64,000 nt of DNA, from contig JBBQLN010000010.1 in the NCBI GenBank assembly GCA_038327905.1, positions 11-64,010 on the forward strand, read 5' to 3'. The stretch is from Burkholderiales bacterium. GTDB taxonomy: Bacteria > Pseudomonadota > Gammaproteobacteria > Burkholderiales > Methylophilaceae. Shown here in pieces: positions 2,699-28,939 of the stretch. Under the pieces are notes generated by a model, which had not been told where the DNA came from, made no database searches, and worked only from the letters and a program-made list of their open reading frames with translations. How positions within the stretch are numbered: the first letter of the stretch is position 1; each line of letters starts with the position of its first letter. The position numbers and the translations under genes are program-made.

Positions 2699-2707
2699 CA
2701 GATTGAC

Positions 2708-11909: not shown

Positions 11910-11924
11910 TTTTGTCTACAATCT

Positions 11925-13556
11925 CTATCTAGCTGATTTCGAATACGCAATTTTGTTATTGATGTCTTTACGCAAAATTTTGCCGTTTTTAGTACGCGGG
12001 AAATCTTTAGTTAAATACACCGTTTTTGGCGCTTTATAAGCCGCTAAATGCTGCTTGCCAAATGCCATTAACTCATCCGCATTGACTTCAGAATTAGGTT
12101 GCAAAATGACATAAGTCACGACTAATAATTTGTCTTTTTCAAGCTCCTCACCCACAGCGGCACAGTCGGCCACAGCAGGGTGCGATTTATACACGCGCTC
12201 AATTTCATAGGGTGATACGCGGTAGCCAAAGCTCTTAATAATGTCGTCTTTACGTCCTAAGAACCAGATATAGCCATCTTCATCATATCGCGCATAATCA
12301 CCAGAGAAAAACCAGCCATCATGCTTATATTTTGCCGTTTCTTCGTCAAGATTCCAATAACGTAAGAATAAGCCTGGGTCTGATTCTGGCACGCTAATCA
12401 TACCTTCTTCGCGTTGTTCAACTTCTTCTAAAGTGTCAGGATTCAGCAATTTAATGGCATGGCCTGGTTGTGGAAAACCTGCAGAACCTGCACGTATCGG
12501 ACGGAATATACTTTGACTTAAATAGTATGAAAACTCACTCATGCCAACGGCTTCGTAAATATCTGCACCAAAACGTTCACGCCATTGTTGTAATACTTCG
12601 TCAGACAGATGCTCACCAGCACTCATGCAGTGACGTAAGCTTGGCACATCGACTTGTTTGGCTGTCGATTTCTGAATAATTTGGCGATAGATTGTTGGTA
12701 CACCCACAAAAATCGTCGCTGAATGTTTGGCTATCAAACGTGTCCATAAATCAGCATCATTTTTGCCTTCATGCACGATGACCGTTTTGCCTAAATAGAG
12801 AGGATCCATCAAGCCTGAACCTAATACATAGGTCCAATTAAACTTACCTGAATGCATGATGCGGTCTTGCGAATTGGCATCAAAATTAAACCAGTATTTA
12901 GAAGCGGGTTCTCGGCCTATCAAAGCACGGTGCGCGTGCAGCACGCCTTTTGGATAACCAGTTGTACCTGAGGTATACACCAAATAAGCTGGATCGTCCG
13001 ATGCCGTTAAATGTGCTGGTTCGCATTTTGTAATTGCAGAAAGCTGTGCGTCTAAATCGCACACATTTAAGCTGGCATGTGGCGACACTTCACCAACACC
13101 AGACAAGAACACGTGTTTTAAATTCGGCAAACCTGTTAAATGGTCTTGCAGTGAAGGCCATGCCGCTTTGTCTGTTACCAACACTGTCGCTGTTGAGTCT
13201 TTGGCTAAATAAGCAACTTCCTCTGCGGTCAGTAATGTCGAAGTCGGTACAGAAATAGCACCACGCTTCATTGCACCCAAAAATGCGGTTGGATAATCTA
13301 GATTATTTGGCAGGCGAATAAGCACACGCTCACCAGCATCAACGTTTAAATTTCTAAGTAATTGTGCAAATTGGTCTGTACGTTTAGCTAGCTGCTCAAA
13401 GGTGATTTGTGAAGTGCCTTGTATGTCGTCTTCTACAATCATTGCAATTAATGAGGCCGCCGCTGTGTTCAAGTGCTTATCGGTACAAGCAGCGCCAATA
13501 TTGAAATGTTTAGGAACGCTCCATTTCCACTCTGGAAACTCTACTAGCTTTTGCAT
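11925..13556 (-). CDS. AMP-forming acyl-CoA synthetase/ligase, substrate unknown
   Basis: 543 aa. AMP-binding signature YTSGTTGYPKGV and a C-terminal GKIxRK-like motif (NGKILRKD). Confidence 0.8.
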   Translation of the reverse strand: MQKLVEFPEWKWSVPKHFNIGAACTDKHLNTAAASLIAMIVEDDIQGTSQITFEQLAKRTDQFAQLLRNLNVDAGERVLIRLPNNLDYPTAFLGAMKRGAISVPTSTLLTAEEVAYLAKDSTATVLVTDKAAWPSLQDHLTGLPNLKHVFLSGVGEVSPHASLNVCDLDAQLSAITKCEPAHLTASDDPAYLVYTSGTTGYPKGVLHAHRALIGREPASKYWFNFDANSQDRIMHSGKFNWTYVLGSGLMDPLYLGKTVIVHEGKNDADLWTRLIAKHSATIFVGVPTIYRQIIQKSTAKQVDVPSLRHCMSAGEHLSDEVLQQWRERFGADIYEAVGMSEFSYYLSQSIFRPIRAGSAGFPQPGHAIKLLNPDTLEEVEQREEGMISVPESDPGLFLRYWNLDEETAKYKHDGWFFSGDYARYDEDGYIWFLGRKDDIIKSFGYRVSPYEIERVYKSHPAVADCAAVGEELEKDKLLVVTYVILQPNSEVNADELMAFGKQHLAAYKAPKTVYLTKDFPRTKNGKILRKDINNKIAYSKSAR

Positions 13557-13612
13557 TTTCAGACTCTCTAAAATTCTATGTTGTTAAATTAATGAAGCAC
13601 GATTGATTAAAT

Positions 13613-14740
13613 TTACAGCAATACGCCATACGGCCAGTTTTGGCGTATTACCTGTGCTGGCAATAACTCAAGCACTTGTAGTGCAAAGTCCATATCATCT
13701 TGATTTAGTGCGCGCAAAGCATGCGCTCTCAACAAGGTTTGCAGCGCTTTTCCAAACATTGGAGGATCTAACATCTCGCCTTCAAACTTAATCGCCCCAC
13801 CATGTAACGCATCTGCTTCAATCGCGGCTTTTAAGATACGTACTTTTTGATTGACCTCAGTAGGTGACGGGGTGTATGCCGTTTTACATAAATGAATATG
13901 TCCAGGGTGAATCACTTGCTTGCCAGTCAAACCCATCGCTGCTTCTTGGCAAGCGTGTTTGTAGACAACGCGTGATTCATTATCACCATGCAAATCTAGC
14001 CAGCGGCGCACATCATGCGGCTCGACGAATTTCTCAGGCATCACATTAGCGCCAATTAATGTCTCAACGCCACCAATTACCCCTTTACCGGCAATACGTG
14101 CTTCAAACATGAGTTGATTCATATAGAACTGCAACTCTTCAATCCAGTGTTCTGGCGTAATGTGAATACCCATTGCTTTTGAGAAGTCATGAATACCAAA
14201 AACCACATGCTTTACTGTGCTGTATTGCATTAATTCTGGTGCAATTTTTAGTGATTTTGGATGTTCAATAATCGGCTGAATCGTAATATGTGGATTCAAA
14301 TCTAACAATAGACTTGATAAATCACGTACTTCAGCCGCGCCATAGGCCTCACCTGCTTTAGCGAGCATGACAACGTCGATATAGTTAGACATATCTGCAA
14401 CGAGCTGCATATCCAGCTCATACTCATCGGTACGGAATGAGTTTGCTCGGATGGCAATCGTTATACTAGGATTAACTTCGCGCAACGCTGGCAACTCTTG
14501 GCGTAATAAATCACGACTCATGGCTTTTTGACGACAGCCATCTTCCAAGTCAAAAATTAAAGTATGTGCATTGGTATGATGCGCGTGCTTTTTCATGCGC
14601 GCCGCAGCTTGAGAGACATCTTCGTAAATACCATGTGCCGGTGAATATTTAACAGGCGGATAGTAAAGCTGAATACCAGGCCAATCTTCACCCAGCATAT
14701 TACTATTGGTATAACACTTGATTTTTACAGGACCATTCAT
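13613..14740 (-). CDS. HpcH/HpaI aldolase - CitE-like acyl-CoA lyase family protein (paralog 1)
   Basis: 375 aa. Family motifs FDLEDG, IIEHPKS, GIHDF and VIHPGHI resemble malyl-CoA/citramalyl-CoA lyase-type enzymes. Confidence 0.65.
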   Translation of the reverse strand: MNGPVKIKCYTNSNMLGEDWPGIQLYYPPVKYSPAHGIYEDVSQAAARMKKHAHHTNAHTLIFDLEDGCRQKAMSRDLLRQELPALREVNPSITIAIRANSFRTDEYELDMQLVADMSNYIDVVMLAKAGEAYGAAEVRDLSSLLLDLNPHITIQPIIEHPKSLKIAPELMQYSTVKHVVFGIHDFSKAMGIHITPEHWIEELQFYMNQLMFEARIAGKGVIGGVETLIGANVMPEKFVEPHDVRRWLDLHGDNESRVVYKHACQEAAMGLTGKQVIHPGHIHLCKTAYTPSPTEVNQKVRILKAAIEADALHGGAIKFEGEMLDPPMFGKALQTLLRAHALRALNQDDMDFALQVLELLPAQVIRQNWPYGVLL

Positions 14741-14781
14741 GCTAAGGCTTTCAATAATTTTAATTATTCTTAATTAATTTT

Positions 14782-15090
14782 TTAATGACCACTTAATTTG
14801 GTCAGTACTGTTTTCATTGCATCTGCACCTAAGTGCCTGTTGCTTAATGCTTCTACATCTGCAAACTTAATTCTTGATGTCACTAAATCTAAAAATTCGT
14901 TATCTGGTAAATCTAGCAAGCTATCAAACGCCAATAACTCTGGTTTAGTGAGGGTAGCAAGGTACTTCTCAGAAAAGCGCTGCAATACAATGTCTAGCTC
15001 TAGCAAGCCACGGCGACAACGCCAACTTAAGCGGCGAACTTCTTCCTCAGTCATATTTTGCTTATCTGTCTTGAGTTCACCTAAAAACAT
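14782..15090 (-). CDS. sdhE: Succinate dehydrogenase FAD assembly factor SdhE (DUF339)
   Basis: Contains WRCRRGLLELD, matching the E. coli SdhE core WACRRGMRELD. The start is ambiguous: 15090 has an AGGGA Shine-Dalgarno sequence, while the internal ATG at 15054 gives an E. coli-like length. Confidence 0.8.
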   Translation of the reverse strand: MFLGELKTDKQNMTEEEVRRLSWRCRRGLLELDIVLQRFSEKYLATLTKPELLAFDSLLDLPDNEFLDLVTSRIKFADVEALSNRHLGADAMKTVLTKLSGH

Positions 15091-15109
15091 GTCTCATATC
15101 CCTTTATGC

Positions 15110-15850
15110 CTAAACAGGCTTAATCTCAATATGTTTTTTTGCATTGTTTTTATGCTCACGCGCTTGCTCAAATTTAAGGTCTTTGATTTTCGCAATCGCG
15201 GCATTGGGATTCAGTTTCTTAGGGCACACTTCCACGCAGTTCATAATGTTGTGGCAACGGTATAAACGATCTGGCTCTTCTAAGTTTTCTAAACGCTCAT
15301 CTAGCACCTGATCACGACTATCCACCATAAAACGATAAGCCTGCATCAAACCTGCTGGGCCGACAAACTTATCTGGATTCCACCAAAATGATGGGCAAGA
15401 AGTGGTGCAGGCACCACATAAGATACACTCATACAGACCATCAAGTTTGGCGCGGTCTTCAGGTGATTGTAGGCGCTCAGTTTCAGGTGGCGGATCGTTA
15501 TTTACCAAATAGGGTTTAACCGAATTGTAATTCTCGAAAAACTGCGTCATATCCACGACTAAGTCACGAATCACAGGCAAACCTGGCATTGGGCGAAGTA
15601 CGATAGGCTCTTCTAAATCAGACAGCTTGGTAATGCAAGCCAAGCCATTTTTACCATTGATATTCATGCTGTCAGAGCCGCATACACCCTCACGACATGA
15701 CTTACGCAGGCTTAAGCTATCATCCAATTCTTTGATGCGCAGCAGTGCATCGAGCAGCATTAAATCACTGTCTTCAAGTTGCACGTCGTAATCTTGCATG
15801 TAAGGCTTTTTGTCTTCGTCAGGGTTGAATCTGTAAATTGAGAATTTCAT
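15110..15850 (-). CDS. sdhB: Succinate dehydrogenase iron-sulfur subunit
   Basis: 246 aa. 2Fe-2S motif CREGVCGSD and ferredoxin-type motifs CILCGACTTSC and CHNIMNCVEVCP. Confidence 0.92.
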   Translation of the reverse strand: MKFSIYRFNPDEDKKPYMQDYDVQLEDSDLMLLDALLRIKELDDSLSLRKSCREGVCGSDSMNINGKNGLACITKLSDLEEPIVLRPMPGLPVIRDLVVDMTQFFENYNSVKPYLVNNDPPPETERLQSPEDRAKLDGLYECILCGACTTSCPSFWWNPDKFVGPAGLMQAYRFMVDSRDQVLDERLENLEEPDRLYRCHNIMNCVEVCPKKLNPNAAIAKIKDLKFEQAREHKNNAKKHIEIKPV

Positions 15851-15917
15851 GGTTTTGTCTCTAATTTCTAATTAATTCTGTTTAATTCCGTTTAATTCAG
15901 CGATGCGTTTATAACGC

Positions 15918-17693
15918 TTAATAAACACGTGCTTTAGGCTCAAAGCTCTCTACTGTTTGTGGTTTTAGGCGCACAGGCTTATAGGCTAGGCGATTGCCTT
16001 CACGGTAATAGAGTGAATGTGTAAGCCAGTTTTTATCGTCACGCTCGCTAAAGTCTTCACGCGCATGTGCACCGCGACTCTCAGTTCTGGCCTCTGCAGC
16101 ATGCATGGTCGCTAAAGCCACTTCCACCAAATTATCAAGCTCTAATGCCTCAATCCTTGCGGTGTTAAATACTTGGCTTTTGTCTTTAATCACGGTGTTT
16201 TTAGCGCGCTCAGCTATTTGGTCGATTTTATTCACGCCTTCTTGCAGTAACTCTGGGAAGCGGAACACACCACAATGCGTTTGCATGGTTTCACGTAAGG
16301 CCGCGCCTACATCTTTTACGCTCTCACCTTGGGCTTGCGTGTTTAGTCGATTTAATCTTACCAAAGTCTTATCAAACGCATCTGCTGGCAATGGTTTGTG
16401 ACCAGAGTGCAGCAAGTTATCTTTTCTCACTTCTTCAACCATTTTGTCACCTGCTGCGCGACCGAATACGACTAAATCTAGCAATGAATTTGAACCCAAA
16501 CGATTCGCACCATGCACTGAAACACAAGCGCACTCGCCCACTGCATATAAGCCATTCACTACCGATTGACCACCATTGCCATCTGGCACAACCACTTGAC
16601 CTTGTAGATTGGTAGGAATACCGCCCATCATATAATGCACTGTTGGCACAATAGGAATTGGGTCGTAGACCGGGTCAACATTGGCAAAAGTTTTGGCAAT
16701 TTCGCGGATGCCTGGCAATTTGTCATTAATTAAGGCTTCGCCTAAATGATCTAGCTTTAAGAAAACAGCATCTTTGTTTTTACCCACGCCACGGCCTTCT
16801 TTAATTTCAGTCGCCGTTGCACGCGAAACCACATCGCGGCTCGCTAAGTCTTTTGCATGTGGCGCATAACGCTCCATAAAGCGTTCACCTTCGCTATTGA
16901 CCAAATAACCACCTTCACCACGGACACCTTCTGTAATCAGTACGCCAGCATTCAACACCCCTGTTGGGTGAAACTGCCAAAACTCCATATCTTGCAAGGG
17001 GATATTGGCACGTGCTGCCATACCTAGGCCATCACCAGTATTGATGAACGCGTTAGTACTGGCTTTAAATATGCGGCCTGCACCGCCAGTAGCCAACATA
17101 GTGGCTTTGGCGCGTAGGCAATGCACCTCGCCTGTTTCAATCTCTAGTGCTAAAACACCTAATACGTTGCCATCAGCATCTTTTAATAAATCGAGCGCTA
17201 ACCATTCCACAAAAAATTGGGTATTCGATTGAATATTGCGCTGATAAAGCGTGTGCAACATGGCATGACCAGTTCTATCTGCCACTGCGCAGGTGCGTGA
17301 GATAGCAGTTTCACCAAAGTTTTGCGTCATGCCGCCAAATGGGCGTTGAAATATCTTGCCATTTTCTAAGCGGTCAAACGGCATACCAAAATGCTCAAGC
17401 TCGTAAATTGCCGCAGCAGCGTTTTTACACATAAACTCAATCGCATCTTGGTCGCCTAGATAGTCTGAACCTTTGATGGTGTCGTACATATGCCATAGCC
17501 ACTTATCATCCGCTACGTTACCTAGCGCGGCGGCAATGCCGCCCTGCGCCGCTACAGTGTGCGAACGCGTTGGAAATACTTTAGATAGCACCGCTACTTT
17601 TAAGCCTGATTGCGCTAATTGAAGCGAAGCACGCATGCCCGCACCGCCACCACCTACTACTAACGCATCAAATGTTTGAGTTTGTAACGCCAT
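15918..17693 (-). CDS. sdhA: Succinate dehydrogenase flavoprotein subunit
   Basis: FAD dinucleotide fold [11 protein letters not shown], the covalent-FAD His context [10 protein letters not shown], and the HGANRLG motif. I start at the ATG at 17693 rather than the TTG at 17699. Confidence 0.92.
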
Positions 17694-17760
17694 AACCAAT
17701 TAACCTTCAATAAATTTTAAATAATCTCTATCTCATCAACCGCGTCAATCAGTGCGCCAA

Positions 17761-18105
17761 TTAACCCAGCAGTAACCAAGTTGCCCAAAGCAAATAAACC
17801 CATAATGACACCACTAAAAGTTTATCTAGCACATCTCGAACACCTGGATTTGGCACGTAATCTTTAAATACATCGCGAATGCCTAGCCATGCATGTATGC
17901 ACAAGCTAATCCAAAACAACAAAGTAGCAATACGCCACCACAGTGGCTGAAAAAAATTGACCCAAGCTTCATAATGGCTCGGCTGTATGATTAAGAATCT
18001 TGCAACCGCAAAAACGCTATAAATCGCCATGACTAGCGCGCTAAGTCTTTGTGTTAACCAAGCACGCATGCCTGGGTATCGTTTAGTGAGAAGTTCAATA
18101 AGCAT
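17761..18105 (-). CDS. sdhD: Succinate dehydrogenase membrane anchor subunit
   Basis: 114 aa with three TM helices, located between sdhC and sdhA. Confidence 0.8.
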   Translation of the reverse strand: MLIELLTKRYPGMRAWLTQRLSALVMAIYSVFAVARFLIIQPSHYEAWVNFFQPLWWRIATLLFWISLCIHAWLGIRDVFKDYVPNPGVRDVLDKLLVVSLWVYLLWATWLLLG

Positions 18106-18111
18106 AAACTG

Positions 18112-18525
18112 TTAAATCCAAATTTTTACGGCTAATACCAAAGTAGCTAAGACACCTAACACGAGTACAACTTTGCTGGTATAACGCGCTTTCATCAGCG
18201 TAGTCATCCAGTGCACATCCATTGCAAGATGACGAATTCCCGCAAAAAAATGATGAAAAAAAGCCCACGCCAACCCTAAAACCATGAGCTTTATAAAAGG
18301 CGAATGTAAAATTGTAATCACCGTTTCATAGTGCTGAGCTGAGCTAAGTGAAAACTGCAATAATAGTAAAATAACAGGCAAGATTAAAAACAAAGCGCAA
18401 CCTGTGGCTCGGTGCAGTATCGACACTAAAGCATTAATAGGCAGGCGAATGGTGAATAGGTTCAGGTTTTTTGGTCGAGTCATTTGACCAGGTCTTAGCT
18501 TTGCTTTTTGGCTATTTTTTTCCAT
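18112..18525 (-). CDS. sdhC: Succinate dehydrogenase cytochrome b556 subunit
   Basis: RPKNLNL..LPINALVSILHRATG is the SdhC signature. I start at the ATG at 18525; the ORF track starts at the TTG at 18531. Confidence 0.8.
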   Translation of the reverse strand: MEKNSQKAKLRPGQMTRPKNLNLFTIRLPINALVSILHRATGCALFLILPVILLLLQFSLSSAQHYETVITILHSPFIKLMVLGLAWAFFHHFFAGIRHLAMDVHWMTTLMKARYTSKVVLVLGVLATLVLAVKIWI

Positions 18526-18536
18526 TATCAAAAACC

Positions 18537-19763
18537 TTACTTAGCCTGTTGTGCTAATTTGTCTTGTTGTAACCGTGCAGCATCCGCCACTGCACCAGAC
18601 ACTCTTGATAACAAGCGCTTGTCGAATGGTTTTGGAATAATGTAATCCTTACCAAAACTTAAGCTCTTTAAGTTATATGCGGCCAGCACATCTTCTGGCA
18701 CAGGCTCTCTAGCTAACGCTGCTAAAGCCCGCGCTGCGGCGATTTGCATTTCATCAGTAATTTGTTTAGCTTTAGCGTCTAAAGCGCCGCGGAATAAATA
18801 AGGGAAGCACAAGGCGTTATTCACTTGATTTGGAAAGTCTGAACGACCAGTTGCCATTAAAATATCATCACGAACCGCATGCGCTAAACTAGGCAAAATC
18901 TCTGGGTCAGGGTTCGCCAAGGCAAACACTACAGGCTTTGCTGCCATCAATTTAAGCAAATCTGGTGATAAAGTATTGGCGGCTGAAACACCAATAAACA
19001 CATCTGCATTTGGCATCACATCAGCCAACGTTTTAGCATTACTTGGCGCTACAGCTAAATGACGATTATTGTCATGCAAGTCAGTACGCGAAGTATCTAA
19101 AACTCCAGACTTATCAACCATAGTGATATTAGTTGCACCCATTAATTTAAGCAATCGAGCACATGAACAACCCGCCGCACCCGCTCCTAAAAATACGATT
19201 TTTGCTGTGGGTAATGTTTTGCCTTGCAACTCTAAAGCATTAGTCAAAGCTGCAGAGACGATCACCGCCGTGCCATGTTGGTCATCATGAAACACTGGAA
19301 TATCTAAACGTGCGCGCAATTCATTTTCGATTCTGAAACAATGTGGCGCCGCAATATCTTCTAAATTAATACCACCAAATGTTGGGGCAATATTCACTAC
19401 CGTTTCAATAAACGCCTCGATACTTGGCGCATTGATTTCTATATCGAATACGTCAATGCCCGCAAAGTGTTTGAACAAAACGGCTTTGCCTTCCATGACT
19501 GGTTTACTGGCCAATGGGCCCATATTACCTAAACCTAATACCGCAGTTCCGTCAGTAATTACTGCAACTAAATTACCTTTATTTGTATAGTTATATGCTA
19601 AAGCAGGGTCACGGTTTATTTCTCGCACAGGTACAGCCACGCCTGGCGTGTAAGCCAAGGATAAATCATCTTGTGTGGCACATGGCTTAGATGACTCCAC
19701 AGAAAGCTTACCTGGTTTAGGAAACTCGTGATAATCAAGTGCGCGTTTTTTTAGATCGTCCAT
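18537..19763 (-). CDS. NAD(P)-dependent malic enzyme (short form, no PTA-like domain)
   Basis: 408 aa. N-terminus ..ALDYHEFPKPGKLSV.. and LSLAYTPGVA are typical of prokaryotic malic enzymes. Confidence 0.88.
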   Translation of the reverse strand: MDDLKKRALDYHEFPKPGKLSVESSKPCATQDDLSLAYTPGVAVPVREINRDPALAYNYTNKGNLVAVITDGTAVLGLGNMGPLASKPVMEGKAVLFKHFAGIDVFDIEINAPSIEAFIETVVNIAPTFGGINLEDIAAPHCFRIENELRARLDIPVFHDDQHGTAVIVSAALTNALELQGKTLPTAKIVFLGAGAAGCSCARLLKLMGATNITMVDKSGVLDTSRTDLHDNNRHLAVAPSNAKTLADVMPNADVFIGVSAANTLSPDLLKLMAAKPVVFALANPDPEILPSLAHAVRDDILMATGRSDFPNQVNNALCFPYLFRGALDAKAKQITDEMQIAAARALAALAREPVPEDVLAAYNLKSLSFGKDYIIPKPFDKRLLSRVSGAVADAARLQQDKLAQQAK

Positions 19764-19802
19764 TTAATACTGCCTTTCATCGGCTTTTTTATTTAGATAT
19801 TG

Positions 19803-20540
19803 TTACTCAAGCTCATTCATATAGTGATGATTGTCGGTCACACACAGCCCTAAGCGCCATTCCATGGGTTTGTCACCATAGGTAAATGACACACGCTCAA
19901 TACTTAAAATTGGTTCACCCTCTTTTAACCCTAAGGCCTTAGCTACTTCACCTTTAGCCCCTACCGCTTTCAAGCGCTCTTCAGCACGTACCATGCGCAC
20001 ACCAAATTCAGACTCATACATGCTATACATCGAACCATTATTCTCTTCTACACGCACACCATTCAAACCTTTAAATGCTGCAGCGGGGACTACAATGTGA
20101 TCAAATATTAACGGCCTGCCAGAGAATGTAAGTAATCGCTTTATTTCTATGGTTGAAGCACCTGCTTTTAAATCTAATATTTGCCCCATGCGCACATCGG
20201 CTTTGCCTTTGGTGCATGAAATAAACTCGTTTTGTAACAGCTCTTTTTGGCCATCTATAGAAGTCAGTCTTAAAAACCGCAACTTCATGCCTTCAGCACT
20301 ATGCGTTGCTACAAAGGTACCCTTGCCTTGGCGGCGAATAAGAATGTTTTCTGTAGCTAATGCATCTATGGCTTTGCGCACAGTACCTTGGCTGACTTTA
20401 TAACGACCGGCCAACTCAATTTCGCTTGGAATCATATCGCCAGGGCGCCATTCGCCGCCAATCAAGCTTTGCGTAAGCAGCACTTTAATCTGATCATATA
20501 AAGGCTTGTAGCTTGGGGAATTGTAGTGTTTATCTATCAT
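19803..20540 (-). CDS. GntR family (HutC/UTRA-type) transcriptional regulator
   Basis: wHTH motif PSEIELAGRYKVSQGTVRKAIDAL plus a C-terminal UTRA-like domain. First gene of the minus-strand operon, divergent from the CitE/prp operon. Confidence 0.85.
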   Translation of the reverse strand: MIDKHYNSPSYKPLYDQIKVLLTQSLIGGEWRPGDMIPSEIELAGRYKVSQGTVRKAIDALATENILIRRQGKGTFVATHSAEGMKLRFLRLTSIDGQKELLQNEFISCTKGKADVRMGQILDLKAGASTIEIKRLLTFSGRPLIFDHIVVPAAAFKGLNGVRVEENNGSMYSMYESEFGVRMVRAEERLKAVGAKGEVAKALGLKEGEPILSIERVSFTYGDKPMEWRLGLCVTDNHHYMNELE

Positions 20541-20667
20541 GATCTTTGCTTCTCGCTTTAAGTTGAAAAAGTGGCTGAACGGGCTTAATGCTTATTTAAC
20601 CGCAATTTAACGTTGAACTTCATTACCGATATTTATATCACGAGTATTTACAATAGTCTAGCATTTT

Positions 20668-20692
20668 ATATCTTATATAAGACATAAGATAT
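20668..20692. promoter_or_regulatory. Candidate operator made of nested palindromes
   Basis: ATATCTTAT(20668-76)-N7-ATAAGATAT(20684-92). Inside it lies the perfect 12-bp palindrome TCTTATATAAGA (20671-82). It sits in the 223-bp divergent region next to the GntR gene. Confidence 0.45.
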
Positions 20693-20695
20693 ATA

Positions 20696-20725
20696 TTGAC
20701 ATTTTTTTATTTCTCTCTATATAAT
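20696..20725 (+). promoter_or_regulatory. Sigma70-like promoter for the CitE-like/MaoC/prpBCD operon
   Basis: TTGACA (20696-701), an 18-bp spacer, then TATAAT (20720-25), about 38 nt upstream of the ATG at 20764. Confidence 0.5.
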
Positions 20726-20763
20726 CGTCTAGCTTTAAAACAATTAAAACTAAAGGCAATACA

Positions 20764-21645
20764 ATGGCTCAATACTTCCGCCCTAGGCGTTCTATGCTTT
20801 ATGTACCCAGTTGCAACACGCACTACCTTGAGCGTGCGCGGACGCTTCACGCCGATTCCGTCATACTAGATCTGGGCGACCCTATATTGGTTGAATGCAA
20901 AGAAGAGTCGCGCGACAACGTAGTGCGCTTTGTAAATGAAGGGGGCTATGGCTCACGTGAAGTAGTGGTACGCGTTAATGATCTTATTTCTCAATGGGGT
21001 CCTGACGATATTAAGGCGATTGCAAAAACCAAAGTGGATGCTGTTTTATTTCCAAACATCGAATCTCGTGAAGATGTGCTTACTGCACTTTCATTGCTAG
21101 ATGCTGCGGGCGGCAGCCACTTACCGATTATGGTGATGATTGAAAGCCCGATTGCCGTGTTGAACGCAAAAGAAATTGCAGCAGCATCAGATCGTATCGT
21201 GTGCATTGTCATGGCAACCTCTGACTTAATTTCTCAATTACATGCACGCGTTACACACGAACGCTCAGCGATTTTAACTTCGCTTTCCTTAGTGATACTT
21301 GCCGCTCGCGCTTATGGCCATGCTGTGGTGGATGGCATCACTAGCGACTTCAGAAATATGCACTCTTTTGAATATGCCTGCCGCTTGGGGCGCGATATGG
21401 GTTTTGATGGCAAATCGTTAGTGCACCCTGCACAATTAGCTTACAGCAACGATGCTTACACACCGCAAGCTTTAGAAGTGACACATGCACAAGAAATTAT
21501 CGCCGCGTTAAAAGAGGCTAACGAGCAAGGTAAAGGTACGGTAGTAGTTAACGATAAGCTTGTAGAACGCCATCACGTGAGGGCTGCAGAGCGCTTATTA
21601 AGACTCAGTGAAATGATTAAGACTTTGGAAGAAAGCCATGTCTAA
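20764..21645 (+). CDS. CitE-like acyl-CoA lyase family protein (paralog 2), variant DLGD motif
   Basis: 293 aa. RRSMLYVPS..ADSVILDLGDP, MIESP and SLVHPAQL are CitE/HpcH family motifs. The usual DLED is DLGD here (Gly codon 20875-77). Confidence 0.7.
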   Translation: MAQYFRPRRSMLYVPSCNTHYLERARTLHADSVILDLGDPILVECKEESRDNVVRFVNEGGYGSREVVVRVNDLISQWGPDDIKAIAKTKVDAVLFPNIESREDVLTALSLLDAAGGSHLPIMVMIESPIAVLNAKEIAAASDRIVCIVMATSDLISQLHARVTHERSAILTSLSLVILAARAYGHAVVDGITSDFRNMHSFEYACRLGRDMGFDGKSLVHPAQLAYSNDAYTPQALEVTHAQEIIAALKEANEQGKGTVVVNDKLVERHHVRAAERLLRLSEMIKTLEESHV

Positions 21646-22735
21646 TACTAAAAGTAAAATCAACGTAGGTAAAGTTAATACGGGCAATTTCTTTGAGGAC
21701 TTTCACCTCAATCAAGTGATTCAGCACGCGACACCACGCACCATCACCGAAGGTGAAATGGCGCTGTACATCGCCTTAACTGGTGCTCGCCAAGTTTTGC
21801 ATTCGGCTGATACGGTGGCTCAATCGTTAGGTTACAACGCTAGGCCTGTCGATGATTTACTCGCATTTCATATTGCCTTTGGTAAAACTGTACCTGATAT
21901 TTCCGTTAACGCAATTGCAAATCTTGGTTATGCGGATGTCCGTTTTTTACAACCTGTGCATATTGGCGATACGCTGAGCACTTGTTCAGCCGTCATTGGC
22001 TTGAAACAAAACTCCAATGGCAAATCTGGTGTTGTTTATGTGCGCTCTGTATCTACCAATCAACTACAACAGCCTGTACTTTCATGGGTGCGCTGGGTAA
22101 TGGTGCACAAAAATAATTTGGATGCGCCAGCGCCAGAAACCCTAGTGCCAAACTTGCCCAGCCATGTGCCAGCTGAAGAACTAAACGTACCTAATTTTCT
22201 GGATGCCAGAAAATTCAATACCACAGTCACTGGTGGACAATATTTATGGAACGACTATGCCGTGGGGGAGCGCATCAACCACCCAGCAGGCATGACAATT
22301 AGTGACACTGACCATACCCTCGCGACCAAACTTTATCAAAACAATGCGCGCTTGCATTTTGATGATGTGATGATGAAAAAGACTGCATTTGGTAGACGCT
22401 TAATGTACGGCGGCCACATTATTTCGTTGTGTCGTGCGCTGTCGAATGATGGCCTAGAGAATGCACTGTGCATTGTTGCCATAAACGGTGGTACGCACTG
22501 CAACCCATCATTTGGTGACGACACTATTTACACATGGACAGAGGTTTTGGATAAATGGGATGTGCCAAACCGTAACGATGTTGGCGCATTAAGATTGCGT
22601 ATGGTTGGTGTAAAAAATATGTCTGCAGACGCATTAGAAAGCACGCACATTAACGCTGACGGTAAACAATCTTACCACCCAAATGTAGTGTTGGATTTAG
22701 ATTACACCGTGCTAATGCCACGGAAACCAAATTAA
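21638..22735 (+). CDS. Double hot-dog MaoC-family enoyl-CoA hydratase (mesaconyl-CoA / itaconyl-CoA hydratase-like)
   Basis: 365 aa, the size of fused two-MaoC-domain hydratases (Mch/Ich type). Overlaps the upstream gene by 8 nt. Specificity is not determinable by eye. Confidence 0.6.
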   Translation: MSNTKSKINVGKVNTGNFFEDFHLNQVIQHATPRTITEGEMALYIALTGARQVLHSADTVAQSLGYNARPVDDLLAFHIAFGKTVPDISVNAIANLGYADVRFLQPVHIGDTLSTCSAVIGLKQNSNGKSGVVYVRSVSTNQLQQPVLSWVRWVMVHKNNLDAPAPETLVPNLPSHVPAEELNVPNFLDARKFNTTVTGGQYLWNDYAVGERINHPAGMTISDTDHTLATKLYQNNARLHFDDVMMKKTAFGRRLMYGGHIISLCRALSNDGLENALCIVAINGGTHCNPSFGDDTIYTWTEVLDKWDVPNRNDVGALRLRMVGVKNMSADALESTHINADGKQSYHPNVVLDLDYTVLMPRKPN

Positions 22736-22771
22736 TAAATTTTTTTTAGATTAGCACCTTAGGAAGATACG

Positions 22772-23773
22772 ATGTCAAGCACACAACAATTAGTTCACCC
22801 TAGAGACGCATTATTTGGCGGTGAAAAATCATTTCCCATCATCCCATCATGCGAGCATTTTGCTGGCAGTGAAAAATTAATACTTAAAGCCCTCTCTATG
22901 CAAGACACGGTCGGGGCTGTATTTGACATTACTTGCGACTGCGAAGATGGCGCACAAGCCGGTCAAGAGCGTGAACATGCAGCAATGATAGTGCGCGTTT
23001 TAACAAGCGATGCCAATAAACACAAAATGGCAGGCGCACGAATTCACGACTACACCAATAGTTACTGGAAACAAGATGTGGATATTTTGGTGGCCGGTGC
23101 TGGCAAAGTTTTAAGCTATATCACCATTCCAAAATGTACCACTTACGCACAAGCCAGCGAAATGATTGCCTATATTCAGAAAACGGCTACTTTCAATGGC
23201 GTTGAGCGCGTGATTCCAGTGCATATCCTCATTGAAACGCACGGTGCATTAAAAGCCGTGCATGAAATCGCGACCTTGCCTTGGGTGCAAGTGTTGGACT
23301 TTGGCTTAATGGACTTTGTCAGTGGTCATCACGGCGCTATTCCAGCTTCCGCTATGCGAAGCCCAGGTCAGTTTGACCACAGATTACTCGCACGTGCAAA
23401 AGCAGAGCTAGTCGCAGCTGCGCTCGCTAATGGCGTGGTACCTGCACATAACGTCACACTAGATCTTAAAAATGTAAAAACGACGCATTCAGATGCCTCA
23501 CGTGCGCGCAACGAATTTGGCTTTTTACGTATGTGGAGTATTTACCCAACGCAAATCGAAGCTATTGTCGATGCCATGAAACCAAACTTTGATGAAGTGC
23601 AAGATGGCGCCAACATTCTACTCGCTGCTCAAAAGGCCGACTGGGGACCAATTCAGTACGATGGCGAACTACATGACAGAGCGACCTATCGTTATTTCTG
23701 GGAAATTCTACAAAAAGCCAAACTGACCAAAGTCGCTATTCCAGCTGAAGCAACACAAGCCTTCTTCAGTTAA
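22772..23773 (+). CDS. HpcH/HpaI aldolase - CitE-like acyl-CoA lyase family protein (paralog 3)
   Basis: 333 aa. Motifs DCEDG, ILIETHGAL, GLMDF and WSIYPTQI parallel the malyl-CoA lyase motifs (LDLEDA, LIET, WAIHPSQI) that I recall. Confidence 0.65.
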   Translation: MSSTQQLVHPRDALFGGEKSFPIIPSCEHFAGSEKLILKALSMQDTVGAVFDITCDCEDGAQAGQEREHAAMIVRVLTSDANKHKMAGARIHDYTNSYWKQDVDILVAGAGKVLSYITIPKCTTYAQASEMIAYIQKTATFNGVERVIPVHILIETHGALKAVHEIATLPWVQVLDFGLMDFVSGHHGAIPASAMRSPGQFDHRLLARAKAELVAAALANGVVPAHNVTLDLKNVKTTHSDASRARNEFGFLRMWSIYPTQIEAIVDAMKPNFDEVQDGANILLAAQKADWGPIQYDGELHDRATYRYFWEILQKAKLTKVAIPAEATQAFFS

Positions 23774-23825
23774 TTTTATTAAATCTAAGATATACATTTA
23801 AATACATAATATTCAGGTACTCCAT

Positions 23826-24713
23826 ATGACACAAGCAGCCACAGCAGGGGCAAGATTTCGTGCCGCTCTAATCGCCGAAAAACCACTACAAATCATCGGT
23901 GCAATCAATGCATACCACGCCATGCTCGCTACCCAAAGTGGTTTTAAAGCACTTTATTTATCTGGCGGCGGTGTTGCTGCAGGCTCGCTTGGATTACCAG
24001 ATTTAGGTATATCCACTTTAGAAGATGTGTTAATTGACGTGCGCCGCATTACAGATGCCGTTGATACACCTTTACTCGTGGATATCGATACTGGCTGGGG
24101 CGGCGCTTTTAACATTGCACGCAGCGTAAAAAGTATTGCCAAAGCTGGCGCAGCGGCGGTACATATTGAAGACCAAGTGTCAGCAAAGCGCTGCGGCCAT
24201 CGCCCAAACAAAGCTATTGTGAGCTTAGAAGAAATGGTCGACCGTGTAAAAGCTGCAGTTGACGCAAAACCTTACGATGATTTCGTTATCATGGCGCGCA
24301 CTGATGCATTGGCTGTAGAAGGTTTGCAATCAGCCATAGACCGCGCTTGCGCCTGCGCTGAGGCGGGTGCTGACATGATTTTCCCTGAGGCGATTACAGA
24401 GCTCAGCATGTACAAGCAATTTGCAGCCGCTGTAAAAGTGCCCGTGTTGGCCAATATTACTGAATTTGGCAGCACGCCATTGTTTACTGTGGATGAGCTA
24501 CGCATTGCGGATGTGAGCATGGTGCTCTACCCACTGTCAGCTTTCCGTGCGATGAATCAAGCGGCGTTAACCGTTTACCAAGCAGTGAAAAAAGATGGTT
24601 CACAAAAAAATGTAGTCGACATCATGCAAACCCGCATGGATCTTTACGACCACTTGGGCTACCACGCTTTTGAGCAAAAGTTAGATGCTCTATTTAATCA
24701 AAATAAAGCTTAA
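23826..24713 (+). CDS. prpB: 2-methylisocitrate lyase
   Basis: 295 aa, near-collinear with the recalled E. coli PrpB (..[22 protein letters not shown].., [29 protein letters not shown]). Confidence 0.93.
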
Positions 24714-24727
24714 AGGAGAAAAGCAGC

Positions 24728-25903
24728 ATGAATGCAAACACTCAAAACACCATTCAAACAAGCGGTATCGAAGCCCCTAAAAAGAAAAAAGGCGTAGCGC
24801 TAGCAGGTGTTTCTGCGGGAACCACAGCCATTTGTACAGTAGGCCATACGGGCAACGATTTGCATTATCGTGGTTACGACATTATTGAGCTGGCTAAAAG
24901 TGCAACGTTTGAAGAAGTCGCTTATTTATTGATTCATGGTGAATTACCAAATAAAGCTGAGCTAGCCGCTTATCACGCCAAACTTAAAAAGTTACGCGAT
25001 ATACCTGCCGCACTCAAAACCGTGTTGGAACAAATTCCAAAAAATACACACCCAATGGATGTGATGCGCACAGGTTGTGCAATGCTAGGTACCTTAGAAC
25101 CTGAAGCGGCTGACCGTAATATCAAAGCAGCGCAAGATTTAGGCGACAAGCTAATTTCGTGTTTCGGCTCAATTTTGTTGTATTGGTACCACTTTAGTCA
25201 CCATGGTAAACGCGTGAATTTAGAAACTGACGACGATAGCATTGCAGCTCACTTTCTACATGTGCTTCATAACAAGGCGCCAAGCCAATTACATATTGAT
25301 GCGATGAATACATCTCTCGTGTTATACGCAGAGCATGAATTCAATGCCTCAACATTCACCGCGCGTGTGATTGCAGGCACATTGTCTGACATGTATAGCT
25401 GCATCACTGGCGCAATTGGTGCTTTACGTGGCGCTAAACACGGTGGTGCAAATGAAGCGGCAATGGAAATCATTGAGCGCTATAAAAATGCCGACGAAGC
25501 AGAAGCTGACATTTTAGCGCGCATGGCACGCAAAGAAATCATCATTGGTTTTGGTCACCCAGTTTATACGATCGCTGACCCACGAAATGAGTCAATCAAA
25601 GCTGTTAGCCGCAAATTATGCGAAGATGCAGGCAATATGACGCTTTTTGAAGTATCAGCTCGTATTGAAGAAGTGATGTGGCGTGAGAAAAAAATGTTCC
25701 CAAACTTAGATTGGTACAGCGCCTCTAGCTATCACATGATGGGCATTCCTACGGGCATGTTCACACCGATTTTTGTAGTCTCACGCACGACAGGCTGGGT
25801 TGCGCATGTAATTGAGCAACGTATTGATAACAAAATCATACGCCCAAATGCCGAGTACATTGGCCCAGATAATCGCGCTTATGTACCTTTAGAAAAACGT
25901 TAA
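24728..25903 (+). CDS. prpC: 2-methylcitrate synthase
   Basis: 391 aa of the citrate synthase family (GFGHPVY, catalytic His/Asp context). Located between prpB and prpD. Confidence 0.9.
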
Positions 25904-25935
25904 TTTAAAAATAGTTCAATTATAGAAAGTGTCTC

Positions 25936-27396
25936 ATGTCATCTCATATATCAAACGTACGTCCTGCGCCAGACCAAGTGATTGTCGATATCGCCAATTA
26001 TGTGGCTGATTTCGAAATCAAATCTGATGAAGCATTCGACACTGCGCGCAACTGCTTAATGGATACGCTAGGTTGCGGTTTTGAGGCCTTAGATTATCCT
26101 GCTTGCACCAAATTATTAGGCCCAGTGATTGCTGGCACAGTCGTGCCAAACGGCGCAAAAGTGCCAGGCACTTCATTTCAGCTAGACCCAATCTTAGCCG
26201 CCTTCAACATCGGCGCGATGATACGTTGGTTAGACTTTAACGACACATGGTTAGCTGCTGAATGGGGTCACCCATCAGATAACTTAGGCGGCATTTTGGC
26301 CACTGCAGATTATATTTCACGTAAAAATGTAGCTGAAGGTAAAGCTGCACTGACTATTAAAGACGTGCTGACAGCGATGATTAAAGCACACGAAATTCAA
26401 GGGGTATTAGCGCTAGAAAACAGCTTTAACCGCGTAGGTTTAGACCATGTGATTTTAGTTAAAATCGCCTCTACAGCGGTAGTGACCAAACTACTAGGCG
26501 GCAATAAAGAAGATATTATCAACGCTGTTTCTAATGCCTTTGTTGATGGTCAAAGTTTACGCACTTATCGCCATTCGCCCAACACAGGCTCACGTAAATC
26601 ATGGGCAGCGGGTGATGCGACAAGCCGTGCAGTGCGTTTGGCGTGGATGACCATGCAAGGTGAAATGGGCTACCCAAGCGCACTCACAGCCAAAACATGG
26701 GGTTTCTACGATGTACTATTTAAAGGCAACGCATTTAGGTTTCAACGTGGTTATGGCTCGTATGTGATGGAACAAGTATTGTTCAAAATCTCTTTTCCAG
26801 CTGAATTCCATGCACAGACCGCTGTAGAGTGTGCAATTCAATTACACGCACAAGTGGGCAAAGAAATTCAAACATTAGAACAAATCGCGCAAATTGATAA
26901 AATCGTCATTACAACCCACGAATCAGCCATTCGCATTATCGATAAAACTGGCCCTTTAGATAACCCAGCTGACCGTGACCACTGTATTCAATACATGTCT
27001 GCCATTGGCTTGTTAAAAGGCAACTTAACCGCACAAGATTATGAAAATTCAGCTGCGGCAGACCCTCGCATCGACGCCATTCGCGCAAAAATGGTCTGTG
27101 TAGAAAAAGCCGAATACACTGCAGATTATCTAAACCCAGAAAAGCGCTCAATTGCTAACGCAATTCAAGTGTTCTTTAAAGACCATACAAGCTCAGACAA
27201 TATCGCCGTGGAATATCCAATCGGCCACCGCCGTCGTCGTGGTCAGGGCATCCCAGAACTTGTGAAAAAGTTCCAAGTGAACTTAGCACGCCGTTTTGAT
27301 GCTAAAAAACAATCAGAAATTTTAGCGCTTTGTTTAGATCAAACTAAATTGGAAGCAACGCCTGTCAACGTATTTGTGGATATGCTAGTAGCTTAA
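25936..27396 (+). CDS. prpD: 2-methylcitrate dehydratase
   Basis: 486 aa of the MmgE/PrpD family, about the length of E. coli PrpD. Last gene of the operon. Confidence 0.9.
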
Positions 27397-27422
27397 ATTA
27401 TTAGTCGCTTAGATTAATAAAA

Positions 27423-27452
27423 ATACGCGTACACCTGCGTATATTTTTATTT
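27423..27452. terminator. Weak bidirectional terminator-like hairpin between prpD and the MocR gene
   Basis: ATACGC(27423-28)-N8-GCGTAT(27437-42), flanked by an A-run upstream and ATTTTTATTT downstream. The stem is only 6 bp. Confidence 0.3.
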
Positions 27453-27454
27453 GA

Positions 27455-28939
27455 CTAATTTTTACTCAGCGTCTGGAAAGCAACTTTCAGTCGCTGAACC
27501 CCTTGCGACAACTCATCATTACCCAAGCTTCCAAATCCCATTCTAATTGCCTGTACAGTAAAACCATTATCCATAAAAAGTGAGCCCAGTAATATCTGTA
27601 CTCTTTCTTTGCTCGCACATACCACTAAGTTTTCTAAATTGACGTTCTTAGTCAGCCTTAGCCAGAATGCCAAGCCACCTTGCGGCATATCAAAATTCAC
27701 AAACTCTGATAGCTCACTTAGTAAAAGCTTTTCCAGTAAATTACGTCGCTCATGATAGATTTTAAATGTTCTGCGGATGTGACGCTTTACTTCACCAGTA
27801 TCAATCAACTCCGAAACAACCATCTCCGTGACGGAGTTACCTTGACGATCTATCAGCATAATTTCTGTGGCACATCGATCAACAAACTCTGGCGATGCAA
27901 CAAGATAACCTATGCGTAAACCAGGCGCCAATACTTTAGACATAGACCCTACGTAAACTACTCTGCCCGAGCTATCTGTGCTTGCTAGCGGCAAAGCTGG
28001 ATGATGCTCAAAGTGAAACTCGTGATCGTAATCATCTTCAATAATTACAAAATCATATTGCTCGGCTAGCATAAGAAGTTTTAATCTGCGCTCTGCAGTC
28101 ATCATTACGGTAGTAGGAAACTGATGATGCGGTGTCACATAAACCGCACGTATTTTTTGATCCTTACAGAGCAACTCGAGCTCATCCACCTTTAGACCAT
28201 ACTCATCAACACCCACACTTAATACGGTTGCGCCACATGATCTAAACGCATCTCTTGCAGGCGGATAAGTTAGATTTTCTAACACAACGACATCATTGGG
28301 ACGTACTAACACTCGTGCTGCCAGAAATATACCCATCTGGCTTCCACGTACTATGCAGATGCTATCAACATCCACATTTAAGCCTCTTTCTATATTAAGC
28401 ATGTTGGCGATTGATTGCCGTAATGACAACATCCCTCTTGGGCTGTCATAGCCCAGACAATTCACGCGTGAAGTACCGACTAAGGCATGGCGAAATGCTC
28501 GTGATAACACTTCAAACGGAATCAAACGCGCATCTGGAAGCCCATCGTTGAAGTCAATCACCTTGCTAGTTAATGTTTTCGCTTTTTGGCGCACTGGCTG
28601 CTGTGTATAAAGGCTGGATGATGTTGCTAAGTCAGCTTCAAAACGAGGACTAGGCAATTGCTCTAGGATTGTAAATTTAGGTAGTCTAGCTGAAACAAAC
28701 GTACCCCTTCGCTTTTCAGTGCTAAGCCAACCTTGGGCCACCAGCTCCTCATACGCCAGCATCACAGTTTTTCTATTCACTTTTAGGCTCGCGGCCAAAT
28801 CACGGGTACTTGGCATTGCTGTTGATGACTTTAATCGTCCAACTTTAATTTCTTCGATAATTTTTTGCACAATTTGCATGTATACCGCCATACCAGAATT
28901 CTGGCTAAGCGAGATATTTAACGCCCACAGTCGCAACAT
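27455..28939 (-). CDS. MocR/PdxR-type GntR regulator with fused aminotransferase-like (fold type I PLP) domain
   Basis: 494 aa. N-terminal wHTH (MPSTRDLAASLKVNRKTVMLAYEEL) plus a large aminotransferase class I/II-like domain (..SMSKVLAPGLRIGY.. with the PLP Lys context). Confidence 0.85.
   Translation of the reverse strand: MLRLWALNISLSQNSGMAVYMQIVQKIIEEIKVGRLKSSTAMPSTRDLAASLKVNRKTVMLAYEELVAQGWLSTEKRRGTFVSARLPKFTILEQLPSPRFEADLATSSSLYTQQPVRQKAKTLTSKVIDFNDGLPDARLIPFEVLSRAFRHALVGTSRVNCLGYDSPRGMLSLRQSIANMLNIERGLNVDVDSICIVRGSQMGIFLAARVLVRPNDVVVLENLTYPPARDAFRSCGATVLSVGVDEYGLKVDELELLCKDQKIRAVYVTPHHQFPTTVMMTAERRLKLLMLAEQYDFVIIEDDYDHEFHFEHHPALPLASTDSSGRVVYVGSMSKVLAPGLRIGYLVASPEFVDRCATEIMLIDRQGNSVTEMVVSELIDTGEVKRHIRRTFKIYHERRNLLEKLLLSELSEFVNFDMPQGGLAFWLRLTKNVNLENLVVCASKERVQILLGSLFMDNGFTVQAIRMGFGSLGNDELSQGVQRLKVAFQTLSKN

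Follow-up and report, generated by a model that had tools for sequence, protein, structure and literature searches.

What might two CitE-like proteins and a mesaconyl-CoA hydratase-like protein be doing in front of the methylcitrate genes of a methylotroph? The question is raised by the window, the whole 64,000-nucleotide stretch of a Methylotenera metagenome-assembled genome (MAG) analysed here, whose positions are used throughout. Six plus-strand open reading frames (ORFs) at 20764–27396 encode CitE-A (293 amino acids, aa), the hydratase Mch (365 aa), CitE-B (333 aa), PrpB, PrpC and PrpD, and a third CitE-like protein, CitE-C (375 aa), is encoded in a facing operon together with an acyl-CoA ligase and a class I fumarase. 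Our answer, which we think has about an even chance of being right, is that these plus-strand genes are the promoter-proximal half of a published divergon, and that the three genes in front of prpBCD form, with CitE-C, the ligase and the fumarase, a six-gene module linking acetyl-CoA and pyruvate to propionyl-CoA and glyoxylate.

The gene set itself is not new to the literature, and the idea of the pathway goes back about two decades. The window proteins are 90–97% identical to Methylotenera sequences, the closest named proteins being those of Methylotenera sp. at 93–94%, and the closest loci are those of Methylophilaceae/Methylotenera MAGs. In this family the genes are known as the 'methylcitric acid cycle (MCC)' cluster (M. 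mobilis Mmol_0748–0766 and M. versatilis M301_0686–0703; PMC3728764, PMC4109929, PMC6794327). The order found here, prpD-prpC-prpB-cyl-maoC-cyl <> gntR-mae-sdhCDAB-orf-cyl-ligase-fum-(orf)-acnB, matches the published MCC table, and the genes, divergent layout and GntR regulator are the same, with no difference of substance. The gene set, for which the initial annotation knew of no characterised pathway, is the published Methylophilaceae MCC cluster with its cyl1 (CitE-B in our naming), maoC, cyl2 (CitE-A), cyl3 (CitE-C) and prpE. The MCC literature labels the ligase 'prpE', the malic enzyme 'mdh', the CitE genes 'citrate lyase-like' and the hydratase maoC, and leaves their role open. The cluster has been found to be transcribed in situ above the ribulose monophosphate cycle (Vorobev et al. 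2013) and to be retained in OM43 (Salcher et al. 2019), and a 2025 paper describes it simply as propionate oxidation; our literature search found no paper tying the Methylophilaceae cluster to mesaconyl- or beta-methylmalyl-CoA. What we add is a residue-level case for CitE-A as a thioesterase and a context-based case for CitE-B as a beta-methylmalyl-CoA lyase.

In the proposed route, CitE-C would join acetyl-CoA and pyruvate to (S)-citramalyl-CoA, which CitE-A would hydrolyse to citramalate; the fumarase, acting as a mesaconase, would turn citramalate into mesaconate, which the ligase would activate with ATP to mesaconyl-C1-CoA; Mch would hydrate the latter to beta-methylmalyl-CoA, and CitE-B would split this into propionyl-CoA and glyoxylate. 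Propionyl-CoA would then pass through PrpC, PrpD, AcnB and PrpB, regenerating pyruvate and forming succinate, and the succinate would reach oxaloacetate via Sdh, the fumarase and a malate-oxidising enzyme encoded outside the cluster. The net conversion would be that of acetyl-CoA and oxaloacetate to glyoxylate and succinate, which is equivalent to the first half of the glyoxylate cycle but does without isocitrate lyase. The CoA sits on the acetyl-derived carboxyl in citramalyl-CoA and on the propionyl-derived carboxyl in beta-methylmalyl-CoA, and two lyases, a thioesterase-like CitE, a ligase, Mch and a free-acid hydratase are the exact set for interchanging the two without Mct and Meh. We infer the forward direction of flux because the hydrolysis of a hydroxyacyl-CoA suits an Mcl2-like enzyme, because the module occurs in organisms with no obvious propionyl-CoA source, and because the product would enter PrpC of the same operon in this genome. 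The chemistry guessed at in the initial annotation (mesaconyl-CoA hydration, the reversible cleavage of beta-methylmalyl-CoA to propionyl-CoA and glyoxylate, and citramalyl-CoA), together with its coupling to the methylcitrate cycle, is the best reading.

The hydratase (21638–22735, plus strand) is a double hot-dog protein. It aligns over its full length (residues 11–363) with PDB 4e3e (57% identity, E = 7e-128) and with PDB 8hgn, deposited as 'Beta-methylmalyl-CoA dehydratase' (50% identity, E = 1.5e-111), two solved Mch-type structures that we take to be of Chloroflexi origin, and it scores 51.9 bits against the Pfam model MC_hydratase (PF19315), the cut-off of which is 26.5. By its sequence, the 365-aa protein is an Mch orthologue (mesaconyl-C1-CoA hydratase/beta-methylmalyl-CoA dehydratase) and is predicted to carry out a reversible hydration. 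A grouping with the fatty-acid hydratases, which had been named as part of the outcome that would overturn the idea, was thus not what we found.

Which enzyme would act on the product of Mch? We scanned one genome per species with a CitE-B alignment and mapped the window proteins onto the 80 related loci obtained, calling ORFs in these loci with a GC3-weighted caller. CitE-B (22772–23773, plus strand; orthologue of Mmol_0751) is 68% identical to PDB 3qqw and 50% identical to 3r4i, structural-genomics entries without an assigned function. Its ExD pair, Arg, Mg-binding Glu and Asp, and lid Asp are all invariant (25 sequences), and it adjoins Mch in 52 of the 56 assessable loci. Outside the full module, CitE-B is accompanied at one locus (L078) by a 546-aa dehydrogenase matching (2S)-methylsuccinyl-CoA dehydrogenase (8ciw, 1.4e-156) and by an MC_hydratase-family gene, and at another (L079) by an acyl-CoA dehydrogenase of Mcd size (556 aa) and a partial Mch-like gene; in Cupriavidus, it is found with Mch, acyl-CoA dehydrogenases and a CoA-transferase. 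These neighbours represent the segment of the ethylmalonyl-CoA (EMC) pathway that leads from methylsuccinyl-CoA over mesaconyl-CoA and beta-methylmalyl-CoA to cleavage, which puts CitE-B in the position of Mcl1. Residues and context together suggest that CitE-B is probably a canonical lyase for beta-methylmalyl-CoA (and malyl-CoA).

In the tree, CitE-B forms its own clade (100% support) on a stem of 2.6 substitutions per site, and the node uniting it with the Mcl clade is unsupported (0%); the protein is not a member of the characterised Mcl clade, though it may act like an Mcl. A few other observations concern CitE-B and its homologues. In Leptospira/Leptospiraceae (L059, L063 and L057), homologues with 68–69% identity are solitary among unrelated genes, with no module genes nearby (the neighbours are annotated for L059). 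In Kangiella, a gene for a hot-dog (4HBT) thioesterase begins at the CitE-B stop codon (L051:10981–11481) and could encode a second thioesterase of the pathway. An apparent Mch–CitE-B fusion, a 701-aa ORF at L048, proved to be an artefact: residues 371–701 alone match CitE-B, and the part upstream is out of the Mch frame.

Is CitE-A, then, a second lyase, as the initial annotation had it in speaking of two lyases? This is probably wrong for the 293-aa protein (20764–21645, plus strand; orthologue of Mmol_0753; Pfam HpcH_HpaI, 137 bits). CitE-A lacks the complete Mcl-type catalytic set (ExD, Arg, Mg-binding Glu and Asp, lid Asp). Its ExD pair reads GD, QE, HD or EE across orthologues, with DLGD in place of DLED in the window protein; four loci have Ala, Lys, Gln or Thr for the Mg-binding Asp, and one of them also has Ala for the Mg-binding Glu. 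The lid position (reading KLVERH) is Glu in 15 of 19 orthologues and Gln in one, and it is Asp only in three forms that are fused to the ligase. Only the malyl-CoA thioesterase cluster is stated to have Glu here, in place of an otherwise universal Asp (Asp299 of Rhodobacter sphaeroides Mcl1; Zarzycki & Kerfeld, PMC3832036). A thioesterase-type lid Glu combined with a broken ExD and metal site suggests that CitE-A hydrolyses a hydroxyacyl-CoA rather than cleaving it, and we conclude that it is probably an Mcl2-type acyl-CoA thioesterase. The fusions are single proteins of 839–852 aa (L067:6344–8866, L071:4986–7544 and L075:6400–8919), the CitE-A domains of which have lost the Mg-binding Asp (to Lys, Gln or Thr). 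A ligase–CitE-A fusion likewise occurs in Arcobacter butzleri (AB1918; Miller et al. 2007, PMC2147049).

The remaining three members of the proposed module lie on the minus strand of the facing operon. CitE-C (13613–14740) is divergent, with weak CitE and RipC matches and PDB matches for parts of the chain only. Its DLED, Arg, Glu, Asp and lid Asp recur unchanged in 17 orthologues, a pattern that makes it a catalytically complete CitE-like lyase and a candidate (S)-citramalyl-CoA lyase. The AMP-forming ligase (543 aa; 11925–13556) has benzoate-CoA ligases as its best PDB relatives (9e-65), whereas true acetyl-CoA synthetases reach only 1e-40 to 1e-48; it attained no NCBIfam cut-off, and no PrpE model was among the best 25 of its 98 matches. 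On this evidence from sequence comparison, the ligase is not a PrpE orthologue despite its name in the literature; it is a candidate mesaconate- or citramalate-CoA ligase. The third protein, a class I Fe-S hydro-lyase with fused alpha and beta parts (509 aa; 10380–11909), matches PRK06246, PRK06842 and TIGR00722/00723 and is a fumarase. Mesaconase activity is documented for class I fumarases, and the gene adjoins the module in Thiobacillus, Tepidiphilus and Sulfurospirillum loci, so that we regard it as a fumarase and candidate mesaconase.

In the tree, each of the three CitE proteins has a deep clade of its own, with 99–100% support (100% for CitE-C), and none of these lies inside a characterised clade; the references, included as fragments, were Mcl of R. 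sphaeroides and M. extorquens, CLYBL, RipC, M. tuberculosis CitE, D. radiodurans CitE, 3qqw and 3r4i. The internal branching orders of the three clades match, which indicates that the proteins evolved as a set. CitE-C, the ligase, CitE-A, Mch and CitE-B occur together as a module, often with the class I fumarase; the gene arrangement of the window is repeated in dozens of the 80 loci, so that it is not due to chance. The module is joined to prpBCD, with or without sdh and the malic enzyme, in Methylophilaceae, Methylophaga, Usitatibacter and some Burkholderiales MAGs. On the other hand, it occurs without prp or sdh nearby in Gallionellales/Sideroxydans, which have the same GntR regulator, in Thiobacillus, Tepidiphilus and Hydrogenophilaceae, and also in Kangiella, Colwelliaceae, Thalassotalea, Chromatiaceae and Sulfurospirillum. 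Both sides could be assessed in 52 loci; 18 of these have the full module but no prp genes nearby, and at least 15 combine it with prpB. As the ligase travels with the CitE/Mch module and the full module is often found without prp, the ligase belongs to the module; the ligase, the regulator and the operator described below are parts of a mobile module rather than of the prp gene set, which is likewise new here.

Two groups of loci deserve mention in this context. In Methylophaga (Gammaproteobacteria; L023, L029 and L030), the prp-linked cluster is without sdh and has two CTTATATAAG copies (see below). The Methylophaga CitE proteins group with those of the betaproteobacterial Methylophilaceae and of Gallionellales, which suggests whole-cluster transfer between methylotrophs. 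The module operon of a Chromatiaceae MAG includes the gene of a full-length malic enzyme (759 aa; L049:2417–4696), and CitE-B is followed by a HAD hydrolase (L049:11191–11931) that weakly resembles phosphoglycolate phosphatase (99 bits against a cut-off of 225); a link of these two genes to glycolate/glyoxylate metabolism is possible.

Are the module genes and prpBCD of the window one transcription unit? CitE-A and Mch overlap by 8 nt, and the following gaps are 36, 52, 14 and 32 nt. The downstream genes are prpB (methylisocitrate lyase, 23826–24713; NF008455, 535 bits vs. a cut-off of 353), prpC (2-methylcitrate synthase, 24728–25903; NF009006, 678 vs. 550) and prpD (2-methylcitrate dehydratase, 25936–27396; NF006943, 881 vs. 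575), all on the plus strand. A promoter-like TTGACA-N18-TATAAT at 20696–20725 stands in front of the six genes on the same strand and is the single 12/12 match to the sigma-70 consensus in 9800–27700. The first plus-strand site for termination downstream of it is a terminator-like hairpin after prpD (27423–27442), readable on both strands; no such plus-strand hairpin was seen within 20764–27396. With one 12/12 promoter and no terminator before this hairpin, the six genes appear to be transcribed together. The layout that the initial annotation had described (three genes upstream of prpBCD with gaps of at most 52 nt and one 8-nt overlap) is thus accurate in coordinates and spacing, as are its family assignments (the 293- and 333-aa proteins match HpcH_HpaI/CitE-like models, and the 365-aa protein matches MaoC and MC_hydratase), the motifs DLGD in the 293-aa and DCEDG in the 333-aa protein, and the presence of a third CitE-like gene and an AMP-forming ligase in the facing operon. 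Its single-operon idea likewise agrees with the one promoter, the one terminator and the published RNA-seq of the orthologous genes.

The expression figures come from that RNA-seq, of the M. mobilis and M. versatilis orthologues; the window sequence itself turned up in sediment-metagenome DNA runs only. All cluster genes are transcribed in both species, and most, with the exception of prpD and acnB, reach higher levels in situ than with methanol or methylamine. In M. mobilis in situ, the values in reads per kilobase per million mapped reads (RPKM) are 2575–3106 for CitE-A, 825–1164 for Mch, 1309–1675 for CitE-B, 565–759 for prpB, 560–792 for prpC and 127–171 for prpD. Such a fall along the operon fits one promoter with downstream decay, and the published data thus do not show the lack of co-expression with prpBCD that would have counted against the initial annotation. 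The orthologue of the GntR regulator, Mmol_0754, is among the genes most induced in situ, and natural dissolved organic matter (DOM) raises the CitE-C and ligase homologues of the OM43 strain NB0046 ~10-fold.

The regulator (19803–20540, minus strand) is of the GntR/HutC type, with GntR and UTRA domains, and is divergent from the six-gene operon; it also accompanies the module in Gallionellales, where no prp genes are nearby. The palindrome TCTTATATAAGA at 20671–20682, a candidate operator of this adjacent HutC-type regulator, occurs once in the window at 0 mismatches. Its 10-bp core CTTATATAAG was found in 38 of the 80 related loci, including those of Gallionellales without prp genes, and lies in the gntR/CitE-A spacer on the gene maps with which it was compared (L016, L011, L043 and L024). 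Based on this conserved palindrome, one GntR regulator would control both operons. Beyond the far end of the six genes, a MocR/PdxR-like GntR–aminotransferase fusion regulator (27455–28939, minus strand) is convergent with prpD and has the hairpin at 27423–27442 in common with it; this gene is probably part of a neighbouring MoxR operon and not of the prp cluster.

The facing operon runs from gntR through the malic enzyme gene, sdhCDAB with a 102-aa ORF, CitE-C and the ligase to the class I fumarase, with acnB following after a short gap. The malic enzyme ('mdh' in the literature) is of the NADP type, has 408 aa and no PTA domain, and is encoded at 18537–19763 (minus strand; Pfam malic and Malic_M; NF009501 over residues 4–396). 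The genes sdhC, sdhD, sdhA and sdhB together with the 102-aa ORF occupy 14782–18531 (minus strand), the sdh genes scoring above the cut-offs of the NCBIfam equivalogs; the 102-aa ORF sits where M. mobilis has the DUF339 (SdhE-type) gene Mmol_0761 and is assigned by this position. AcnB (7278–9866, minus strand) is an aconitase 2/2-methylisocitrate dehydratase (TIGR00117, 1486 bits vs. a cut-off of 1287). Between the fumarase and acnB, a small ORF at 9999–10304 takes the place of Mmol_0765, a 'hypothetical protein' (also assigned by position), the gene of which is transcribed very highly in M. mobilis in situ (1863–3131 RPKM).

How does the cluster compare with known systems? The same chemistry was proposed by Miller et al. 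(2007) for A. butzleri ab1917–ab1921 and drawn next to the methylcitrate pathway of that organism (PMC2147049). The six functions are the same there (CitE, ligase, CitE, hydratase, CitE and class I, anaerobic, fumarase), whereas the ligase and CitE-A are fused, the prp genes lie elsewhere and are of the AcnD/PrpF type, and the regulator differs. The Sulfurospirillum locus L075, which is related to the A. butzleri cluster, has an IclR-type regulator. The citramalate cycle proposed for Rhodospirillum rubrum, itself contested (Ivanovsky 1997; Berg & Ivanovsky 2009; reviewed in PMC8307300), runs likewise from acetyl-CoA and pyruvate over citramalate, mesaconate, mesaconyl-CoA and beta-methylmalyl-CoA to glyoxylate and propionyl-CoA, but propionyl-CoA returns there by carboxylation to methylmalonyl-CoA and succinyl-CoA, and here by the methylcitrate cycle. 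With the EMC pathway of R. sphaeroides (Mcl1/Mch/Mcl2) and the Chloroflexus bi-cycle (Mcl/Mch/Mct/Meh), the cluster has in common an orthologous Mch and a CitE-fold lyase that would act on beta-methylmalyl-CoA, and with R. sphaeroides Mcl2 a probable CitE-fold thioesterase with Glu at the lid position. Unlike these systems, it has CitE proteins in deep clades of their own, outside Mcl, CLYBL, RipC and M. tuberculosis CitE, and has an ATP-dependent ligase and a free-acid hydratase instead of Mct, Meh, crotonyl-CoA carboxylase/reductase and mutases.

Several points weigh against the forward route from acetyl-CoA and pyruvate. The roles of the cluster proteins are predicted from sequence, and the thioesterase call for CitE-A leans mainly on one residue, which is Asp again in the forms fused to the ligase. 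Sequence does not fix the direction, and the forward route would cost one thioester and two ATP equivalents. No malate synthase that would dispose of the glyoxylate is known in Methylophilaceae. With no prp genes near 18 of the loci, the coupling to the methylcitrate cycle is either lineage-specific or works in trans. The prpD gene of M. mobilis is transcribed 10–20 times below the first gene and does not co-vary with it. Finally, A. butzleri, which carries the module, grows on neither acetate nor propionate (PMC2147049).

Could the module run in reverse? Glyoxylate and propionyl-CoA would then be joined to beta-methylmalyl-CoA and converted over mesaconyl-CoA, mesaconate, citramalate and citramalyl-CoA to pyruvate and acetyl-CoA, as a ligase-driven substitute for the Mct/Meh steps in the second cycle of the 3-hydroxypropionate bi-cycle, standing beside and not ahead of the methylcitrate cycle and serving the assimilation or detoxification of glyoxylate. 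Mch is nearest to the two solved Mch-type structures of presumed Chloroflexi origin, a ligase–CitE-A fusion would make sense for a ligase whose product, citramalyl-CoA, is used at once, and the hot-dog thioesterase that follows CitE-B in Kangiella (L051) could hydrolyse mesaconyl-CoA. Miller et al. preferred this direction for Arcobacter (PMC2147049). We nevertheless consider it unlikely. It needs stoichiometric propionyl-CoA, and it is not obvious where the module-bearing obligate autotrophs and methylotrophs would obtain this; it requires an enoyl-CoA to be hydrolysed by a CitE-fold, Mcl2-like enzyme, and if CitE-A hydrolysed beta-methylmalyl-CoA instead, Mch would be redundant; and two branches of one operon would compete for propionyl-CoA.

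We judge it similarly improbable that the cluster serves the catabolism of external branched C5-dicarboxylates (mesaconate, citramalate and possibly methylsuccinate). The ligase, Mch and CitE-B would here yield propionyl-CoA and glyoxylate, the methylcitrate cycle would burn the propionyl-CoA, and CitE-C with CitE-A would remove the glyoxylate as an 'apparent malate synthase', in the manner of Mcl1/Mcl2 in Rhodobacter, a published precedent for a lyase plus a thioesterase (PMC3832036). Plainly catabolic clusters do exist in Cupriavidus, where CitE-B follows Mch and acyl-CoA dehydrogenases, a family III CoA-transferase, an ADP-forming CoA ligase, an MFS transporter and a GntR/UTRA regulator lie alongside; the Mcd next to CitE-B at L078 and the strong induction in situ and on natural DOM point the same way. 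However, no transporter was found near the full module in any annotated locus, and the flanking genes annotated in Thiobacillus, Tepidiphilus, Gallionellales, Kangiella, Chromatiaceae and Leptospira are mostly unrelated housekeeping genes, with no transporter among them. The module is also present in obligate chemolithoautotrophs and in the streamlined 1.3-Mb OM43 genomes, and with mesaconate as the entry point an (S)-citramalate/mesaconate hydratase would be unnecessary.

That the cluster is an ordinary propionate-oxidising methylcitrate operon with the CitE/MaoC genes as unrelated passengers is very improbable: recent papers still describe it so, but the extra genes are promoter-proximal, are transcribed above prpBCD, are kept with prp across Methylophilaceae, Methylophaga and Usitatibacter and have a regulator and operator in common with prp, and a PrpE orthologue is absent from the cluster. 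Itaconate degradation (Ich and Ccl) or a true citrate lyase has next to no chance, as the weak profile hidden Markov model matches to RipB/Ich, RipC/Ccl and CitE all lie far under the equivalog cut-offs (hydratase, 101 bits vs. 340 for RipB/Ich, which leaves the itaconyl-CoA alternative raised for it unsupported; CitE proteins, 122 and 49 vs. 375 for RipC/Ccl; CitE-A, CitE-B and CitE-C, 200, 25 and 55 vs. 443 for the citrate lyase model TIGR01588), none of the three CitE proteins reaches the cut-off of the RipC/Ccl or haloarchaeal Mcl models, the hydratase is an Mch orthologue, no Ict/family III CoA-transferase is in the cluster, and none of citD, citF, citC, citX and citG is among the cluster genes at 7278–28939.

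Returning to the forward route, could the two divergent operons (~20 kb, acnB to prpD) together form a complete 'citramalate–methylcitrate bicycle', converting acetyl-CoA to glyoxylate without isocitrate lyase? With the malic enzyme, and with a CitE lyase/thioesterase pair as malate synthase, such a bicycle could even oxidise acetyl-CoA to CO2 without isocitrate dehydrogenase or 2-oxoglutarate dehydrogenase. Methylophilaceae are described as lacking the glyoxylate shunt (isocitrate lyase), the EMC pathway and 2-oxoglutarate dehydrogenase, and the bicycle would be the missing C2-handling route of these 'obligate' methylotrophs and of some chemolithoautotrophs. We advance this extension tentatively, as a possibility that is on balance doubtful.

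Methylophilaceae, including the marine OM43, are among the most abundant aquatic methylotrophs, and few of their gene sets are induced as strongly in nature as the MCC cluster; in papers from 2011 to 2025, its substrate is still called unknown or the cluster is simply labelled 'propionate oxidation'. With a concrete role for each of six unexplained genes, the question comes down to a few enzyme assays and labelling experiments. If true, the bicycle would be a further solution for the assimilation or oxidation of acetyl-CoA beside the glyoxylate, ethylmalonyl-CoA and methylaspartate cycles, and it would explain why the streamlined OM43 genomes keep the cluster and induce it in situ.

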